Assembly: GCA_963717935.1 (NCBI GenBank)
Contig: CAVQXP010000004.1
Location: 864,001-928,000 of the forward strand
Length of the DNA stretch: 64,000 nucleotides
DNA from: Candidatus Eiseniibacteriota bacterium
GTDB taxonomy: Bacteria > Eisenbacteria > RBG-16-71-46
Reading direction: 5' to 3'
The first letter of the stretch is position 1. Every line of letters starts with the position of its first letter. The notes under the pieces are model-generated. The model ran no database searches, had not been told where the DNA came from, and saw nothing but the letters and a program-made list of their open reading frames with translations. Both the position numbers and the translations under genes were made by a program. Shown one piece after another: positions 3,279 to 62,727 of this stretch.

Positions 3279-3545
3279 CGCTGGCGTTGGCGAGGCAGGG
3301 GCCACGGGGCTCGCAGCGGGGATGCTGCGCTCCGCCAACGCCCGCGATTGGGCGGGCGTCTGATGCTGCCCCGGGCGACGCAGGGGACACAGGGCCCTCC
3401 GCGGGGACGCTGCGCGCCGCCAGCGCCCGCGCTGCGCGCGGGCTTTCCCTGGCGGTGCTCGCTCCCCGGCAAACCCCTGGCCGACACATCCTGTGTCGGC
3501 CAGGGCCGGGACCCCCGCTGCGAGCCCCGTGTCCCCTGCGTCGCC
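3247..3545. repeat. REP/BIME-like cluster: about 2.3 direct copies with 85-bp period, one inverted copy and a perfect hairpin
   Basis: CCGCCAnCGCCCGCG at 3247, 3332 and 3417; 3289-3321 matches the reverse complement of 3513-3545 at 31 of 33 positions; 14-bp stem CCCTGGCCGACACA-tcc-TGTGTCGGCCAGGG at 3475-3505. Confidence 0.8.
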
Positions 3546-3624
3546 CTCCGACTCCCCGGAGCACGCCGCCTCCGGCCCGGGCGCACGGCGGCGCGGCCTG
3601 ATGGCAAGCGCTACACTGACGGCC

Positions 3625-4693
3625 ATGCGCATCGGCGACATCCTCTTCGACTCCCCGTTCCTGCTGGCGCCGCTCGCCGGCGTGAGCGACTCGCCCTTCC
3701 GCCGGCTGGCACGCGAGCAGGGCGCCTCCGGGGTCGTGACCGAGATGGTCTCGGCCGACGGGTTGGTCCGCGGTCAGAAGGCCACGCTCGAGTACCTGCC
3801 GCTTCGAGCCGGAGGAGCGCCCGATCGGCGTGCAGCTCTTCGGCGCCGACCCCGGCGTGATGGCGGCCGCGGCGCGCGCGCTGTGCGCGCTGCCGACCGC
3901 CGAGCGTCCGGACTGGATCGACGTCAACATGGGCTGCCCGGTGCGCAAGGTGGTGAACCGCAGGGCTGGCGCGGCCCTGCTCACGGACCTGCCGTTGCTC
4001 TCGGAGATCGTGCGCCGCATGGCCGAGGCGAGCACCCTGCCCATCACCGCCAAGATCCGGCTGGGCTGGGACGGGACCTCGTCCAACGTGGTCGAGGTGG
4101 CGCGCGCGCTCGAGGAGGCGGGGGCGCAGGCCGTGGCGATCCACGCCCGCACCCGCGCCCAGAAGTTCGGGGGCGAGCCGCAGTGGGAGCTGATCGGCGA
4201 GGTGAAGCGGTCGGTCGGCATCCCGGTCATCGGCAACGGCGACGTGCGGGTGCCCGAGGACGCGGTGCGCATGCTCGAGACCACGGGCTGCGACGGCGTC
4301 ATGCTCGGGCGCGCGGCGTTCGGCGACCCCTGGATCTTCCGGCGGGTGCGCGCCTTCTGGGAGCGCGGTGAGCGGCTGCCGCTGCCGACCGCGGCCGAGC
4401 GGCTCGAAGCGGGCATGCGGCACCTGCGTCTGCTGGTCGAGTGGGCGGGGCCCGATGCGGCCACGCGCGAGATGCGCAAGCACGTGGCCTGGTACGTCAA
4501 GGGGCTGCCGCACAGCGCGCGCGTGCGCGAGCAGGCGAACCACACGCGTGCGGCGGACGAGCTGACCACGCTGCTGCGCGGCTACCTCGAGGAACTCGAG
4601 GGTTGCGGCCCCGAGACGTGCGCGGAACGCGCGGCGCCCGCCGCACCCGCGGACGGTCCCGCCCGTCCGGAGGTCCCGCATGCGGCCGGCTGA
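3625..4693 (+). CDS. dusB: tRNA-dihydrouridine synthase B (apparent +1 frameshift near 3800)
   Basis: LAPLAGVSDSPFR, TEMVS, QLFG, DVNMGCPVRKV, IHARTRAQ, IGNGDV, GVMLGR, EMRKHVAWY. Confidence 0.93.
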
Positions 4694-25015: not shown

Positions 25016-27905
<2,890 letters not shown>

Positions 27906-44656: not shown

Positions 44657-44743
44657 GCGGAAGTGGCGGAACTGGCAGACGCACTAGATTCAGGGTCTAG
44701 CGCCCGCAAGGGTGTGGGGGTTCAAATCCCCCCTTCCGCACCA
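44657..44743 (+). tRNA. tRNA-Leu(CAG)
   Basis: Acceptor GCGGAAG/CTTCCGC-A-CCA; anticodon arm CTAGA-TTCAGGG-TCTAG; long variable arm; GGTTCAAATCC. Confidence 0.96.
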
Positions 44744-44837
44744 CGCTCCCATCCGTTGGATGGGCGCCTTCCCGCCATCCGGGCGAGTCAAGGCGGTCGT
44801 GCCCGTCCCACCGCCGGCCCCGCGGACGGTTCCTGCC

Positions 44838-45353
44838 ATGGCTCGTGAAGACTCCAGACCGACCTCCGAGCGGACCCGCGGGCCCTCGCCCGAGGATCGC
44901 CTCGTCGCCCAGAACCGCCGCGCCCACCACGACTACTTCATCCTCGAGACCTACGAAGCGGGCCTCGCACTGCGCGGCACCGAGGTGAAGAGCCTGCGCG
45001 CGGGCAAGGCCAGCCTGGCCGAAGCCTACGCCACGGTGGAGGGCAGCGAGGCCTGGGTGCTGCAGTTGCACATCCCGCCCTACGAGCAGGGCAACCGTGC
45101 GAACCCCGACCCGCTGCGCCGGCGCAAGCTCCTGCTGCACCGCGCCGAGATCGTGAAGCTCAAGGAGGCGGTGGCACGCAAGGGCCAGACGCTGGTGCCG
45201 CTCAAGCTCTACTTCGCTCGCGGCCACGCCAAGCTGCTGCTCGGCGTGGGCAAGGGCAAGAAGAACGTCGACAAGCGCCACGCGATCGCCGAGCGCGATG
45301 CGAAGCGCGAGATGGACCGCGCGCGGCGCGTTTCCCGGGAAGCGCGCGGGTGA
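44838..45353 (+). CDS. smpB: SsrA-binding protein
   Basis: NRRAHHDY, EAGLALRGTEVKSLR, RKLLLHR, GKKNVDKR. Confidence 0.97.
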   Translation: MAREDSRPTSERTRGPSPEDRLVAQNRRAHHDYFILETYEAGLALRGTEVKSLRAGKASLAEAYATVEGSEAWVLQLHIPPYEQGNRANPDPLRRRKLLLHRAEIVKLKEAVARKGQTLVPLKLYFARGHAKLLLGVGKGKKNVDKRHAIAERDAKREMDRARRVSREARG

Positions 45354-48368: not shown

Positions 48369-49142
48369 GTGACCGAAAGCCCCAGGCCCGCCGCCGCGGG
48401 CGCCACGCCCGTTCCGGTCCGTCCCGACGGCCGTGGGCCGCGGGTGATGCGCCCGCTCAAGATCGAGCGTGGCGCCCTGTCCGCCGCCGAGGGCTCGGCC
48501 CTGGTGACGATGGGGCGCACGCGCGTCCTGTGCAGCGCCACGGTCGAGGACCGCCTGCCCGGCTGGCTGCGCGGGAAGGGTGGCGGCTGGGTGACCGCCG
48601 AGTACGGCATGCTGCCGCGCGCGACCACCGACCGCACGCCGCGCACGGCGCAGGCCGGCGGCCGCACGCACGAGATCCAGCGCCTGATCGGGCGCTCGCT
48701 GCGCGCGGTCACCGACCTGAAGGCCTTCGGCGAGCGCACCATCATCCTCGACTGCGACGTGCTCGAAGCCGACGCCGGCACGCGCACCGCGGCGATCAAC
48801 GGCGCCTTCGTCGCCCTGCACGACGCGTTCCTGAAGCTCTCGAACGCGGGCCACCTGAAGCAGTCGCCGTTCAGGGACACGGTCTCGGCGATCTCGGTCG
48901 GCCTGGTCGCGGGCGTGCCCTGCCTCGACCTCTGCTACGCCGAGGACTCGAAGGCCGAGGTGGACATGAACGTGGTGATGACCGGCGCGGGCCGCTTCGT
49001 CGAGGTCCAGGGCACGGGAGAGAGCACCACCTTCGACGCGGCCGAGCTGCGCGCCCTGCTCTCGCTCGCGCGTCTCGGCATCCGCCGGGTCACCGCCTAC
49101 CAGCGCCGCCTGCTCGGCGACTCCGGACTGCTGCCGCGCTGA
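48369..49142 (+). CDS. rph: ribonuclease PH
   Basis: [51 protein letters not shown]. Confidence 0.96.
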
Positions 49143-56570: not shown

Positions 56571-56647
56571 TGGCGCGCCTGGAGGGAATCGAACCCCCGA
56601 CCGACGGATTAGAAATCCGTTGCTCTATCCTTCTGAGCTACAGGCGC
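56571..56647 (-). tRNA. tRNA-Arg(TCT)
   Basis: GCGCCTG/CAGGCGC-G-CCA; anticodon arm ACGGA-TTTCTAA-TCCGT. Confidence 0.95.
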
Positions 56648-56750
56648 AGGACGATTCCATCCGGGCCCACGGCCTGGAATCCGGGACACGAATCCCCGAA
56701 CCCGCCCGGACGGGTGCCCCACCCGCCGGGCGCCCGCCCAGGCGGCAAGT

Positions 56751-56827
<77 letters not shown>

Positions 56828-56853
56828 GACTGCCCGCAGGCATTCGACTGCGG

Positions 56854-56882
56854 AGGATAAGGGCGGGCTCAGGGGGCGTCAA
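56854..56882 (-). promoter_or_regulatory. sigma70-type promoter of the tRNA-Pro-Arg-His operon
   Basis: Minus strand TTGACG-17 bp-TATCCT. Confidence 0.75.
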
Positions 56883-56985
56883 ACGCGGGGTTGCCGCGGC
56901 TCCGTGCCCGTGCGGGGCCAGCCCCGCTGCGGGACGGTCGCGGCGGGCGAGGCTGCACGGCCCTGTGCCCCGGCCCTCGCGCGCG

Positions 56986-57014
56986 TTGCGCCCGCGCACC
57001 GCGGACCGTATGCT
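56986..57014 (+). promoter_or_regulatory. sigma70-type promoter for ssb (and probably ssrA)
   Basis: TTGCGC-17 bp-TATGCT. Confidence 0.65.
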
Positions 57015-57082
57015 CCCGCGGACAGCGGATGGCCCCCGGCGACACGGACGGCCCCCGGCTGGCATTGAACGAGGGGGAGAGC

Positions 57083-57511
57083 ATGGGTGTGAACAAGGTG
57101 ATCCTGGTCGGGAACCTGGGGGCGAACCCCGAGATGCGATCCACCCAGGGTGGCCAGAAGGTCGCCAACCTGCGGCTCGCGACCACCGAGCGCTGGACCG
57201 ACAAGAACGGCCAGAAGCAGGAACAGACCGAGTGGCATCGGGTGGTGGTCTGGGGCAAGCAGGCCGAGTTCTGCGGCCAGTACCTCGTCAAGGGCCGGCA
57301 GATCTACGTCGAGGGCCGTATCCAGACCCGGCAATGGCAGGATCAGCAGGGGCAGAAGCGCTACAGCACCGAAGTCGTGGCGCAGGTCATCCAGCTGCTG
57401 GGCAATCGCCCGGACGGTGCTCCGCGCGAGGACCCGAGCGCGATGATGCCACCCGACGAGGCCGTGACGAACGGTTTCGGCGGCGGGCCGGACGACGACA
57501 TCCCGTTCTAG
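57083..57511 (+). CDS. ssb: single-stranded DNA-binding protein
   Basis: [38 protein letters not shown], acidic tip DDDIPF. Confidence 0.97.
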
Positions 57512-57870
57512 GGGGCGAACGGTCTCGACGGGGGCCGAGAAGCAGGAAGTGCAGGCCGGGGACCCGTGACCTCGTCAAAAAAGCGGGACCATACAACTGC
57601 CAATGAGCAGTTGGCTTTCGCTGCCTAGCTAAACACTAGCAGCGACGGCCGCCCGGACCCCGCCTGTGGGGGCTGGAGCGGGCGTCAGACAAACGCAGGC
57701 TGGTCCGAGGTCAGGCCCGAGGGCGGAGGACGAGATCAATAGAGGGCTGGCGTGCCGCTGATCCCGCCGGTCGGAGCGGGGGTACGCGAGATCCAATCGG
57801 CCGGACAAGCCTGTAGGACTTCCTGGGGACCGACTTTCGGACGCGGGTTCGATTCCCGCCGCCTCCACCA
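57511..57870 (+). ncRNA. ssrA: tmRNA; tag ORF 57599-57628 encodes ANEQLAFAA
   Basis: 5' GGGGGCG pairs with 3' CGCCTCC-A-CCA including G3-U70; TCGAC near the 5' end; T-arm GCGGGTTCGATTCCCGC; tag ends in AA-stop; 360 nt. Confidence 0.95.
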
Positions 57871-57876
57871 ACTCCC

Positions 57877-57901
57877 GGGCCGTTCCCGAAAGGGGCGGCC
57901 C
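57877..57901 (+). terminator. hairpin after tmRNA
   Basis: GGGCCGTTCCC-GAAA-GGGGCGGCCC, no U-tract. Confidence 0.45.
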
Positions 57902-57957
57902 CCGGCACACGATGACCGTCACCCGCCACCCACGCATCCAGTGGAACGTTTGACCAC

Positions 57958-60406
57958 ATGAGCCCATCTGGAAGACGCCCCCGAGCCGGGCGCTCCACGA
58001 AGAAGAAGCCGACGCGCTCTCCCTCGCGCCCGGCCGCGGCTGCACCCCCCAGGTCGGCAGCGCCGGCGCGGCCGAAGGCGCGCCCCGCCGCGGCCGGGCA
58101 GCGGCGGGACGAAGCGGGGCTGCGCGCGAGCGAGGAACGCTGCCGCGCGCTGGTCGAGCAGGCTGCGGACGGCATCGTCGTCGCCGACGGGGACTTCCGC
58201 ATCCTCGAGGTGAATCCGGCCTTCTGCACGATGATGGGCTATCCCCGCGACGCATTGCTGCAGGGCAGCGCGTGCGATTTCTTCGCGTCCGAGGATCTGG
58301 CCGCACGCCCGCTCACGATCGAACCCCTGATGGGGGGGGCGGCGTTGCTTACCTGCCGCCGGCTGCGCCGCAGGGACGGCACGATCTTCGTGGCGGAGTG
58401 CAGCTCGAAGCGCCTCGTGGATGGCCGCATCCTCGTGATCCTCCGCGACATCACCGAGCAGAAGCGCGCGGAGGAAGCGCTGCGCGAGAGCGAGGAGCGG
58501 TTCCGGCGCGTGTTCGAGTCGGAGATGATGGGCATGGTCTTCGGCCTGCGCGGGGGCCCGGTGGCGAAGGCCAACGACTACTTCCTGCGCCTCGTGGGCT
58601 ACACCCGTGACGACCTGCTCGCGGGCCGGTTGCGCTGGGACGCGATCGTGCCGCCCGAGTTCGCGCACCTCACCGAGGAGGCGGTGCGGCAGGCCCGTGT
58701 GGCCGGTACCAGCAAGCCCTTCGAGACCGAGTTCATCCGCAAGGACGGCACCCGCGTGCCGGCGCTGTGCGGCACCACGTTCATCGGATCCGCGCGTGGC
58801 CTCGGGGGCGGGTTCGTGCTGGACCTCACCGGGCTCCGACGCACCGAGCAGCGCCTGGCGGAGAGCGAGCGCTATCTCGAACGGGCCCAGGTGCTGGCGC
58901 ACGTCGGCACCTGGGACGCCGACCTCGCGACGATGACCGCCACCTTTTCGGACGAGATGCTGCGCATCTTCGGCAGGCCGCCTGGCGGTCCTGCCGTCAC
59001 CTATTCCGAGTTCATCGCAGCCATCCACCCGGACGATCGTCCGGCAGTGGAGCAGACCATCCGGCAAGCGATCACGCGGCCCGGCGAGCAGAAGTTCGAG
59101 CACCGCCTCGTGCGTCCGGACGGCACCGTGCGCATCGTGGAGGCCACCTCCGAGTCCGTATGGGACGCTTCGGGCCGGCCCGCGCGGATCATCGGCTCGG
59201 CCCAGGACATCACCGAGCGTCGCTTCCTCGAGCTGCAGTTGCGCGAGGCGCAGAAGCTCGAAGCCATCGGCCGGCTCGCAGGCGGCGTGGCGCACGACTT
59301 CAACAACCTGCTCACGGTCATCCTCGGCTTCACCGAGACCCTGCTGGAAGGTCTGCCCGCGGGGGACACGCGACGCGCGAGCGCCGAGCAGATCCGCGCG
59401 GCCGGGCGGCGCGCGGCCAGGCTCACCCAGCAACTGCTCGCCTTCGGCCGCCGGCAGGTGCTCCGGACGCAGGTGTTCGACCTGAACGTGGTGCTGGCGG
59501 AGATGCGGGACATCCTCGAGCGGCTCATCGGCGGGGAGATCGAGATCGTCATCTCGCCGGACGCCAGACCGTGCCTGGTCGAGGCGGACCGCGGGCAGCT
59601 CGAGCAGGTCATCCTGAACCTGGTGCTCAACGCGCGCGACGCGATGCCGGCCGGCGGGCGCCTCGGCATCGCGACGCGCAGGGTCGAGCCCTCCACCGGC
59701 GAGCAGCGCGCGTCCTGGCTGGAGCTCGCCGTGAGCGACACCGGCACGGGCATGAGCCCCGAGGTCCAGGCGCAGATCTTCGAGCCGTTCTTCACCACGA
59801 AGGAAGTGGGACAGGGGACCGGTCTCGGCCTCGCCACGGTCCACGGCATCGTGACCCAGACGGGCGGCCACATCGAGGTGAGCAGCGCCCTCGGGAAGGG
59901 CACGACCTTCCGCGTGTTCCTGCCCTGTACGGAGCAGGAGGCGGACCCGGTGGAGGCCGCGCCCGCGGAGTCCGGGTCGGACGGCGTGGAGACCGTGCTC
60001 CTGGTCGAGGACGAGAGCGCGGTGCGCGCGCTCATGGCCAGGGTGCTGCGCCGCCGGGGCTATCGCGTGATCGAAGTCGCCGATGGCGACGAGGCGATCG
60101 AGGCCTCGGACCGGCACTCCGGCGTGGTCCACCTGCTGGTCACGGATCTGGTCATGCCGGGGATGAATGGCCGGGAACTGGCGCGCTTCCTGGTGCACGT
60201 GCGCCCGGGTCTGCAGGGTGCTCTTCGTGTCGGGCTACAGCGACCAGAGGGTCGAGCCGCGGAAAGGCCGCGTGGGGAGGGAGGCCTTCCTGCAGAAGCC
60301 CTTCACCCCCGTCGTCCTCGCCGACGTGGTCCGGCAGCTCCTGGACGCCCCGGGTCCTGCCCCGGCTGCGGCCCCGACCCCGGCTCCGGGCCCCTCCGGG
60401 AGTTAG
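57958..60406 (+). CDS. cytoplasmic hybrid histidine kinase: three PAS domains, HisKA, HATPase, receiver (apparent +1 frameshift near 60215)
   Basis: GRLAGGVAHDFNNLL, QVILNLVLNARDAM, DTGTGM, FEPFFTTK, GTGLGL, LLVED, TDLVMPGMNG, FLQKPF. Confidence 0.93.
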
Positions 60407-60548
60407 TCCCGCGGCCGCAGCCGCGCGCCGGAGCCCTCCTTGCGGCCCGTCCGGTCCCCGCGGGCCCCGGGAGACCCCTCCGGGCGATGGCGAGGCCCTC
60501 CGAATCCTCTTGCGGCGGACAGGTTCGGGCGCTTAGTCTCGCGCGCTT

Positions 60549-61251
60549 GTGGATCCTGACGAAGGCACCCTCCTGCAGCGTCTGGACGAGGTCCGCGGCC
60601 GCATCGCCGCGGCGGCGGGCCGTTCGGGGCGCCCCGCGGAGGGGGTGACGCTCGTCGGGGTCACCAAGACGGTGGCGGCGGAAGTGGTGCAGGCGGCGGT
60701 CGCCCTCGGCCTGGCCGACCTGGGTGAGAGCCGGGTGCAGGAGGCGCAGGCCAAGATCCAGACCGTGGGCCGGGACCGGGCGCGCTGGCACCTCATCGGC
60801 CACCTGCAACGCAACAAGGCCGGCCGGGCGGTGGAGTTGTTCGACCGCGTCCACGGCGTGGACGACGCGGAACTGGCCGGGGCGCTCTCCCGGCACGCCG
60901 TCTCGTCCGGGCGATCGCTCCCGGTGCTGGTGGAAGTGAACGTGAGTGGCGAGGCCACCAAGTTCGGCGTCGCCCCTGAAGGGCTCGAGCCCCTGCTCGA
61001 GCGCATCGCGGTCCTGCCGGGCCTGAGGCTCGATGGCCTCATGACCGTGGGGGCGCTGGTCGAGCGCGCGGAGGCTGCGCGCGCGGGCTTCGCGCGGTTG
61101 CGCGCGCTGCGCGACCGCGCGGAGCGGCAGCTCGGGCGGCGTGCTGCCCGAGCTCTCGATGGGCATGAGCGGCGATTTCGAGGTGGCGGTCGAGGAAGGC
61201 AGCACGATGGTGCGCGTGGGCTCGGCGATCTTCGGAGCGCGGTCCGCGTAG
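60549..61251 (+). CDS. yggS: PLP homeostasis protein YggS (apparent +1 frameshift near 61140)
   Basis: [69 protein letters not shown]. Confidence 0.93.
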
Positions 61252-61897: not shown

Positions 61898-62727
61898 GTA
61901 CCTGAAGCGGATCGAAGAGGCGGCGGCGGCGGTGCGCGCGCGCACGCGCGTGCGGCCCGACGCGCGGGCGTGATCCTCGGCACCGGGCTGGGCGACTTCG
62001 CCGACGCGCTCGAGCTCGAGACGGTGGTGCCCTTCGCGGAGATCCCGCACTTCCCGGTCTCGACCGTGGAGAGCCACGCGGGCGAACTGCACCTGGGCCG
62101 GCTGGCGGGCCGCCCGGTGGCGGTGATGAAGGGGCGCGTCCACTACTACGAAGGCTACGCCATGCGCGAGGTCGCCTTCCCGGTGCGCGTGCTCCGGGCC
62201 CTCGGCTGCGGCACGCTCGTCGTCACGAACGCGGTGGGCGGGATGAACCCGGACATGCCGCCGGGGACCATCGTGGTCACGACCGACCACATCAACCTGA
62301 TGGGCGACAACCCGCTCGTCGGCCCCAACGACGACGAGCTGGGCCCGCGCTTCCCCGACATGAGCGAGCCCTACGCGCGCGCGCTGGTCGCGCTCGCGGA
62401 GCGCGTGGCGCTCGACCTCGGCGATCGCGCTGCAGCGTGGCGTGCTGGTCGCGGTGCCGGGCCCGAACCTGGAGACCGCGGCGGAGTACCGCTTCCTGCG
62501 CGCGGTCGGCGCCGACATCGTGGGCATGTCGCTGGTGCCCGAGAACCTCGCCGCCGTGCACGGCGGGCAGCGGGTGCTGGCGTCTCAACGTGGTGACCGA
62601 CGCCTGCCTGCCGGACGCCCTGATGCCTGCCAGCATCCCCGAGATCCTGGCGTGCGCGGGACGCGCGGCGCCCGCGCTCATCCGGCTGGTGACCGAGGTC
62701 ATCCGCCGTCTGGGCGACGAGCAGTGA
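61887..62727 (+). CDS. purine-nucleoside phosphorylase, PNP-I type (three apparent frameshifts)
   Basis: [72 protein letters not shown]. Confidence 0.9.

Follow-up and report, generated by a model that had tools for sequence, protein, structure and literature searches.

Can a bacterial gene share the last base of its stop codon with the first base of a structured RNA, and what becomes of its message once that RNA is excised? The question is raised by the junction between ssb, the gene for single-stranded DNA-binding protein (SSB), and ssrA, the gene for transfer-messenger RNA (tmRNA), in the genome of a soil bacterium of Candidatus Eiseniibacteriota. We analysed a stretch of 64,000 nucleotides from this genome (contig CAVQXP010000004.1, positions 864,001 to 928,000), which we call the window and number from its first letter. 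The ssb reading frame closes with GAC ATC CCG TTC TAG at 57497..57511 and runs directly into GGGG C G; in the assembled sequence, the G run from 57511 to 57515 contains exactly five Gs. Both ARAGORN and Rfam (RF00023) place the tmRNA start at 57511. Together with the five-G run, this start makes the G of the ssb TAG (57509-57511) the first nucleotide of the tmRNA (G1), as an initial annotation had proposed. Base 57511 is thus common to ssb (57083..57511) and the tmRNA (57511..57870), and the overlap of 1 nt is real.

The tmRNA gene is intact. Its Rfam match scores 161.7 bits against a gathering threshold of 47 and covers the full model (1-374 of 374). The tRNA-like domain is complete: as the initial annotation had read it, GGGGGCG pairs with CGCCUCC over 7 bp, including a G3-U pair, with ACCA following, and the T arm is GCGGG-UUCGAUU-CCCGC. 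The internal reading frame for the tag, ANEQLAFAA, closes with a protease-recognition tail and a stop. The ssb gene is likewise intact, and its product matches the Pfam SSB family (PF00436) over residues 3-106, with an E-value of 1.5e-41 and 141.1 bits against a cut-off of 26.

We compared this arrangement with that of its relatives. A search with the SSB protein, limited to one genome per GTDB species, gave 421 pattern matches, of which 280 were confirmed and the best 80 loci taken. The 40 most similar of those 80 (L001-L039 and L050) form the closest group; 29 are titled Candidatus Eisenbacteria, 8 'uncultured bacterium' and 3 carry other names. The last three (L012, L014 and L017, titled Udaeobacter, Saccharimonadaceae and Limnocylindria) have an Eisenbacteria-type tRNA-ssb-ssrA locus and nest inside the group in our trees; their names are probably binning or labelling errors.

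In 39 of the 40 closest loci, ARAGORN placed a tmRNA after ssb in the same orientation, and Rfam supplied the fortieth (L016, at 3294-3615 with 114.2 bits, overlooked by ARAGORN). Rfam also confirmed the ARAGORN start in L001, L002, L003 and L007. Two 'permuted' calls by ARAGORN (L022, 1009-1384; L032, 3838-4466) overlap an ordinary tmRNA and look spurious. All 40 tmRNAs tabulated (the window and 39 loci) have the same ends, each starting GGGGGCG, with L020 trimmed differently by ARAGORN; the tags of relatives are ANEQLALAA and similar. The SSB of the window is 92% identical to that of L001, and its acidic tip, DDDIPF at the extreme end of the protein, is shared by 37 of 39 related loci, with DDLPF in L038 and L039. 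The other 40 of the 80 loci, from Myxococcota, Bdellovibrionota and the like, contained no tmRNA by ARAGORN and no Rfam match of any family. Linkage of ssb to ssrA is therefore a trait of this phylum-level group, present in 41/41 genomes including the window versus 0/40 of the more distant loci.

The distance between the two genes varies widely. From the ssb stop to G1 it is -1 nt in 4 of the 41 loci: the window, L001, L003 and L007. Short spacers of 7 nt (L002), 8 nt (L033), 9 nt (L012, L031), 22 nt (L004), 23 nt (L034) and 27 nt (L005) follow, and the remaining 30 loci have spacers of 35 to 762 nt. Spacers in 11/41 loci are thus shorter than 30 nt, with no room for a promoter, and spacers of 0-6 nt are absent from all 41. 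The L029 spacer was set to 145 nt: its scaffold has a gap of 100 Ns at 3427-3526 with the ssb 3' end repeated on both sides, an artefact of scaffolding. The four loci with an overlap share one junction sequence (TTC TAG GGGG CG) and with it a TAG stop, while 34/41 loci have a TGA stop. In L018 the ssb 3' end is repeated (ACGACATCCCCTTCTAA, 1228-1245) at the very start of the spacer, right after the stop. Most spacers also contain, at no fixed position, the short motif GCATC(G/C/T)(A/C)AA, which may be a degenerate repeat of the ssb end (GACATCCCNTTC) or some signal.

An overlap of a single base invites the suspicion of an assembly error. If the window truly had six Gs, the stop would be intact and the spacer 0 nt, and the window does have likely frameshifts elsewhere, among them a Response_reg domain cut at profile position 65 of 111 and other domain fragments. 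The caution of the initial annotation about indels was thus apt for the window at large. It does not carry over to the junction, because the same TTC-TAG-GGGG-CGA sequence with five Gs occurs in the sister locus L001 and in L003 and L007, contigs of three other species. These come from assemblies different from one another, with contig names that we read as MEGAHIT or SPAdes in style. As a general explanation, an assembly artefact is ruled out by these independent assemblies, and for the window we regard it as barely credible.

How is ssrA transcribed from such a position? The initial annotation had placed a TTGCGC-17-TATGCT promoter before ssb, and the pattern is borne out in the group: of the 40 loci scanned (the window and 39 others, L016 left out), 32 have TTGNNN-N16-19-TANNNT no more than 200 nt ahead of ssb, mostly as TTGCGC/TATGCT. 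The L004 contig ends short of the promoter region, and inspection by eye shows a TATGCT-like -10 without a TTG in L012, L024, L025, L035, L036 and L037. The ssb 5' untranslated region (UTR) of the window resembles those of L001, L002, L003 and L005. On the other side, the divergent tRNA-Pro is the first gene of a tRNA Pro-Arg-His cluster found upstream of ssb in most related loci; its TTGACG-17-TATCCT indicates that sigma-70-type hexamers are in use in this genome. Between the ssb start and G1, however, the same promoter pattern is present in only 1 of 40 loci (L038) and not in the window. Even TANNNT by itself is missing from this interval in the window, L001, L003 and L007, and from 12 of 13 loci scanned, a stronger result than the initial annotation's claim for the 3' part of ssb. 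A promoter scan of 56600-58200 likewise returned no plus-strand promoter, only the divergent one of tRNA-Pro. With all three approaches empty in the overlap genomes, we rejected an internal sigma-70 promoter in ssb. At the level of motifs, then, two genes on the same strand are separated by neither a promoter-like sequence nor room for a terminator.

A promoter of another kind, with a different sigma factor or a weak -10, could still lie hidden in ssb. In that case ssrA would be made mainly from its own promoter, read-through from ssb would be minor and the overlap would have almost no effect on ssb. Promoters not of the sigma-70 type are invisible to hexamer scans, and separate ssrA promoter-like sites in some relatives point to independent ssrA transcription in the group. 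These are GTGACA-18-TAGCAT in the L024 spacer (3509-3538) and ATGACA-18-TAGCAT in the L013 spacer (3498-3527), each the sole match in 1300 nt where shuffles give an expectation of 0.1; by eye, a similar site is present in the L029 spacer. We nonetheless judge a hidden promoter improbable. The 428 nt before G1 contain neither form of the motif in any of the four overlap genomes, and at least six separate lineages have evolved spacers with no room for a promoter, which suggests that ssrA expression is independent of the spacer. In addition, the 1-nt overlap leaves no space for an ssb terminator, so ssb transcripts must enter ssrA. The promoter-like site and the hairpin that accompanies it in other spacers are lost in the overlap genomes; ssrA must therefore be fed through ssb there, or by a type of promoter that our scans do not see.

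The longer spacers contain several structured elements. Many relatives have a G+C hairpin just past the ssb stop. Canonical intrinsic terminators, with a stem and a T run, were discarded as a description of these: a perfect-stem scan of 33 spacers gave hairpins with few T runs, and terminator scans of L013, L024 and L035 found none on the plus strand. In a subclade with long spacers (L013, L024, L029, L050 and L032), a strong hairpin, GGCGCTCCCGGC...GCCGGGGGCGCC, lies downstream of the promoter-like GTGACA/ATGACA-18-TAGCAT. Its 3' arm has the same GGGGGCG as the start of the tmRNA and stops 10-20 nt short of G1 (10-14 nt in 4/5 loci). A related hairpin (..GGAGGCGCC) is found in L009, L020, L035 and L017, with a T run after it in L035 and L017. 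Both types could be a leader structure or a terminator. The spacers of L015, L030 and L027 instead have a perfect 8-bp palindrome, GACGTATC-GGAA-GATACGTC, with the stem ending 55 nt before G1 and variants in L028 and L023. The L027 version has paired changes (GACGTAGC-TCCA-GCTACGTC), and the element could act in RNA or as a protein operator for an ssrA promoter.

To trace the origin of the overlap, we built trees with FastTree and IQ-TREE from aligned ssb and tmRNA sequences (40 rows, 899 columns, spacer left out, L016 omitted). The two methods agree in placing the overlap taxa in three well-supported groups, each with a member that has a spacer. In the IQ-TREE tree, L007 groups with L006 (39 nt; support 100/100), the window and L001 group with L002 (7 nt; 100/100), and L003 groups with L004 (22 nt) and then L005 (27 nt; 100/97). 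The state changed at least three times on either tree. A single origin is rejected: the approximately unbiased (AU) test excludes one clade of the four overlap taxa with p = 3.4e-5, for a group that was defined only after the first tree had been seen. Alignment shows that the spacers of L004 and L006, which lie on either side of the base of the clade, share GCGGGAG..CGG.A. We conclude that the ancestor had a spacer and that the overlaps arose by deleting it three times independently. If such a deletion joined the G of TAG to G1 through a microhomology of one base, the junction would be exactly -1 with no need for selection, which offers a mutational reason for -1 rather than 0. The absence of 0-6 nt spacers among about six independent short-spacer lineages is a small comparison made post hoc and is suggestive at most.

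The linkage of the two genes, the conserved ssb promoter, the lack of an internal sigma-70 promoter and the short spacers lead us to favour a fused ssb-ssrA operon, in which the overlap is probably a tolerated end-point of spacer loss and the non-stop ssb mRNA a by-product. In the ancestor of the group, ssb and ssrA would already have been adjacent with a spacer between them, which in some relatives has a hairpin and even its own ssrA promoter; in the lineage of the window, the whole spacer would have been deleted, from the G of TAG to G1. The two genes would now form one transcription unit, driven by the conserved sigma-70-type promoter upstream of ssb and probably ending at the hairpin past the tmRNA CCA. 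The 5' leader of the pre-tmRNA would then be the complete ssb mRNA. SSB would be made from the uncut co-transcript with its normal UAG, and the folded tmRNA would provide a protective 3' end.

Maturation of the tmRNA would change this. From known tmRNA 5' processing, RNase P is predicted to cut between 57510 and 57511. Given the established behaviour of the enzyme, an ssb transcript that reads into ssrA and is cut 5' of G1 would end ...UUC-UA, as the initial annotation had deduced from the shared base, with no stop and no 3' structure. We expect rapid decay of this fragment from the 3' side. Ribosomes that have not yet left it would form non-stop complexes and be rescued by tmRNA-SmpB, giving SSB-AANEQLAFAA that is then degraded; alternatively, a tag-free rescue factor would yield normal full-length SSB. 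The kinetics of RNase P would set the lifetime of the ssb mRNA with or without selection of the overlap, to which the overlap would add the loss of the stop.

Several considerations weigh against this operon model. Co-transcription and the RNase P cut are both predictions from sequence, and the count of five Gs in the window itself is that of its assembly. A promoter for another sigma factor inside ssb would be beyond the reach of hexamer scans, and coding sequence poor in TA rarely shows TANNNT anyway. In the minimum free energy (MFE) fold of the junction, GGCGGCGGG in ssb (57479-57487) and the tmRNA 3' strand (57855-57863) pair with each other and the tRNA-like domain does not form, so access of RNase P to a long precursor is not guaranteed. 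Finally, pure drift does not obviously predict at least three state changes with no spacer of 0-6 nt, although this pattern was recognised post hoc.

Complementarity is perfect between GGCGGCGGG, which encodes Gly residues in ssb, and CCCGCCGCC, which comprises the 3' strand of the T stem and four bases from the start of the acceptor 3' strand, and the MFE and centroid folds of 57451-57875 both form this helix (z of -1.6 for the whole segment, not significant). On a co-transcript, such a helix could delay recognition by RNase P until a ribosome has passed. The complementarity may be chance, as both strands are constrained by their own functions.

Could the overlap itself have been selected? 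The initial annotation had proposed a feedback circuit in which RNase P, in maturing the tmRNA, removes the ssb stop. SSB from this programmed non-stop message would be tagged, its partner-binding tip masked and the protein degraded, and SSB supply would track RNase P and trans-translation in the manner of arfA. Extended to several Eisenbacteria with the exact overlap under selection, each new tmRNA would be born with a substrate of its own. The physical basis of this proposal holds, namely the overlap, the ssb promoter and the intact tmRNA. Its appeal grows with the independent changes, at least three in one small clade, with four loci at exactly -1 and none at 0-6 nt, and with a linkage kept in every genome of the group. 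There is a precedent in arfA (PMC3985003), and reporters with the E. coli SSB C-terminus are described as tmRNA-tagged in the absence of Uup (10.64898/2026.10.08.757592). The proposed selection is unsupported, however. The initial annotation had looked to conservation of the overlap in related genomes, and an arfA-type control would be expected to keep its stop-removing site among relatives; we find that 37 of 41 loci lack the overlap, that the closest sisters have spacers of 7 (L002), 22 (L004) and 39 (L006) nt with intact stops, and that only L001, L003 and L007 share the junction of the window. The microhomology deletion described above gives the same junction unaided. Tagging SSB, which is normally essential and abundant, would be costly, and the secG precedent, with a half-life below 30 s after the RNase P cut, predicts rapid decay of the cut ssb message with little translation. 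On balance we think it unlikely that the -1 overlap was selected as a feedback device.

In animal mitochondria, mRNA ends in U or UA are completed to UAA by polyadenylation. A similar repair is conceivable here, with poly(A) polymerase or polynucleotide phosphorylase (PNPase) adding a non-templated A that turns ...UA into UAA, so that SSB is released normally. The geometry is like that of mitochondrial tRNA punctuation: no spacer separates the coding region from the tRNA-like RNA downstream, and the predicted mRNA end is ...UUCUA. In E. coli, the secG mRNA released by RNase P decays mainly via PNPase and poly(A) polymerase I (PAP I) (PMC2241853). Bacterial tails mostly promote decay, however, and we consider repair of the stop very improbable.

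The features of the locus are collected below.

Table 1. Features at and around the ssb-ssrA junction, in window coordinates.
Feature	Position	Strand	Basis
tRNA-Pro (56753-56827), divergent, with promoter-like TTGACG-17-TATCCT (56882-56854)	56753..56882	-	ARAGORN, Rfam, promoter scan
ssb (operon) promoter, predicted: -35 TTGCGC 56986-56991, 17-nt spacer, -10 TATGCT 57009-57014	56986..57014	+	sequence motif and conservation
ssb 5' UTR with putative ribosome-binding site GAGGGGGAG (57071-57079)	57015..57082	+	inferred from sequence
ssb, 142 aa, OB fold and C-terminal tip DDDIPF, stop TAG 57509-57511	57083..57511	+	translation, Pfam
Shared base: G of ssb TAG and tmRNA G1	57511..57511	+	sequence, ARAGORN, Rfam; same junction in L001, L003, L007
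ssrA (tmRNA), one-piece, encoded CCA end	57511..57870	+	ARAGORN; Rfam RF00023
Tag reading frame ANEQLAFAA and TAG	57599-57628	+	ARAGORN, sequence
G+C-rich hairpin past tmRNA CCA, no T run	57877..57901	+	MFE and centroid fold of 57861-57960
Likely frameshifts or fragments	57958-60648, 27477-27902, 3830-4690, 61970-62593		partial Pfam profiles

The regions flanking the two genes contain other possible structures. Between the ssb promoter and the ribosome-binding site, a 5'-UTR hairpin, GGGCCCCCGCGACGGGGACCCC, is conserved in many loci (e.g. L013, L017, L018, L024, L029, L034 and L050) and is a possible autoregulatory or stability element; at about 57028-57058 the window has a different repeat, GGCCCCCGG. 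The hairpin past the tmRNA is a possible, weak candidate for an operon terminator or a 3' processing stem: the segment 57861-57960 is no more stable than its shuffles (z of -0.72), and the terminator scan makes no call there. The gene for the tmRNA partner SmpB (44657-45353, probable start 44839; Pfam SmpB, E 6.8e-58) is found 12 kb upstream of ssrA, where tRNA-Leu(CAG) precedes it by 95 nt on the same strand, and RNase PH is at 48369-49139. With smpB near tRNA-Leu and ssrA near a tRNA cluster, both trans-translation genes adjoin tRNA-type genes.

Elsewhere in the window, several protein domains are incomplete. The truncated Response_reg domain belongs to a PAS histidine kinase (open reading frame (ORF) 57958..60648), and a 142-aa ORF at 27477-27902 matches only the last third of PEP-utilizers_C. 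A Dus match begins at profile position 58 and a PNP_UDP_1 match spans 5-141 of 233. These partial domains are suggestive of single-base indels in the assembly and fall short of proving them. For the kinase gene, the L001 locus stops before this region and the 79-aa ORF downstream has no Pfam match, which leaves a frameshift unconfirmed.

What would such an arrangement mean? If processing occurs, excision of a tRNA-like RNA by bacterial RNase P cuts a stop codon, a geometry otherwise linked to animal mitochondria, and the RNA released is the very one that rescues ribosomes from messages without a stop. Close relatives provide a natural series of junctions (-1, 7, 8, 9, 22 nt and longer) for asking how much sequence a terminating ribosome needs on its 3' side and how mRNA lifetime is set by the timing of RNase P. 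The linkage across the phylum, together with the tagging described at E. coli SSB termination, suggests a functional tie between ssb and ssrA. Were the feedback circuit true, SSB supply would be bound to RNase P and ribosome-rescue capacity, extending that E. coli link. If the overlap instead arose neutrally by deletion, it still illustrates cleanly the extent to which an operon can be compacted without killing two important genes. A full-text literature search, with most subscription journals outside its coverage, found no account of a tmRNA or tRNA whose 5' end is shared with a stop codon in bacteria, of an ssb-ssrA operon, or of a functional tie between the two genes. The elements are known: a message co-transcribed with an RNase P substrate, a non-stop message made by a nuclease, and tRNA punctuation. 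Their combination, with tmRNA as the excised RNA, would be a new variation on them.

The closest parallels each share part of this design. As in mitochondrial punctuation, a coding region abuts a tRNA-like 5' end and excision would leave a U or UA. Mitochondrial DNA, however, encodes no full stop and polyadenylation makes the UAA, whereas the ssb gene has a complete TAG that is usable before processing. In E. coli, a 2026 preprint describes inefficient termination after the C-terminal Pro-Phe of SSB, more so with UGA than UAG; Uup rescues these ribosomes, and otherwise tmRNA tags the reporter (10.64898/2026.10.08.757592). There, too, the Pro-Phe-stop end of ssb is the point at which trans-translation acts on proteins ending like SSB. 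As described for E. coli, however, the inefficiency stems from the nascent peptide and the release factor, the stop is kept, and ssb and ssrA are unlinked.

The arfA message offers a second comparison. RNase P generates tmRNA 5' ends, and trans-translation prefers messages with little or no 3' extension (PMC3985003). In arfA an endonuclease takes off the stop codon, so that tmRNA normally tags the protein for destruction (Garza-Sanchez 2011 and Chadani 2011, via PMC3985003). Loss of the stop to a nuclease is what we predict for ssb as well, with a tmRNA-tagged product as one possible outcome. In that account, however, RNase III cuts at a hairpin inside the reading frame, the truncated protein is active as a backup for tmRNA, and the regulation is reported as conserved. 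Here the enzyme would be RNase P, the protein would be full-length, the released RNA is tmRNA itself and the overlap is confined to four of the 41 genomes. Nearest in layout is E. coli secG-leuU, where a single RNase P cut parts mRNA from tRNA and leaves 14 nt past the stop (Mohanty and Kushner 2008, PMC2241853). The secG mRNA is then lost exonucleolytically with a half-life below 30 s, mainly through PNPase and PAP I (PMC2241853). In secG-leuU a protein-coding message and then an RNase P substrate lie on one transcript and one cut makes both ends, as we propose for ssb-ssrA. In secG-leuU, as described, the stop stays intact with its 14 nt and the released RNA is a tRNA; at the Eisenbacteria junction, the cut would fall inside the stop codon and release a tmRNA.

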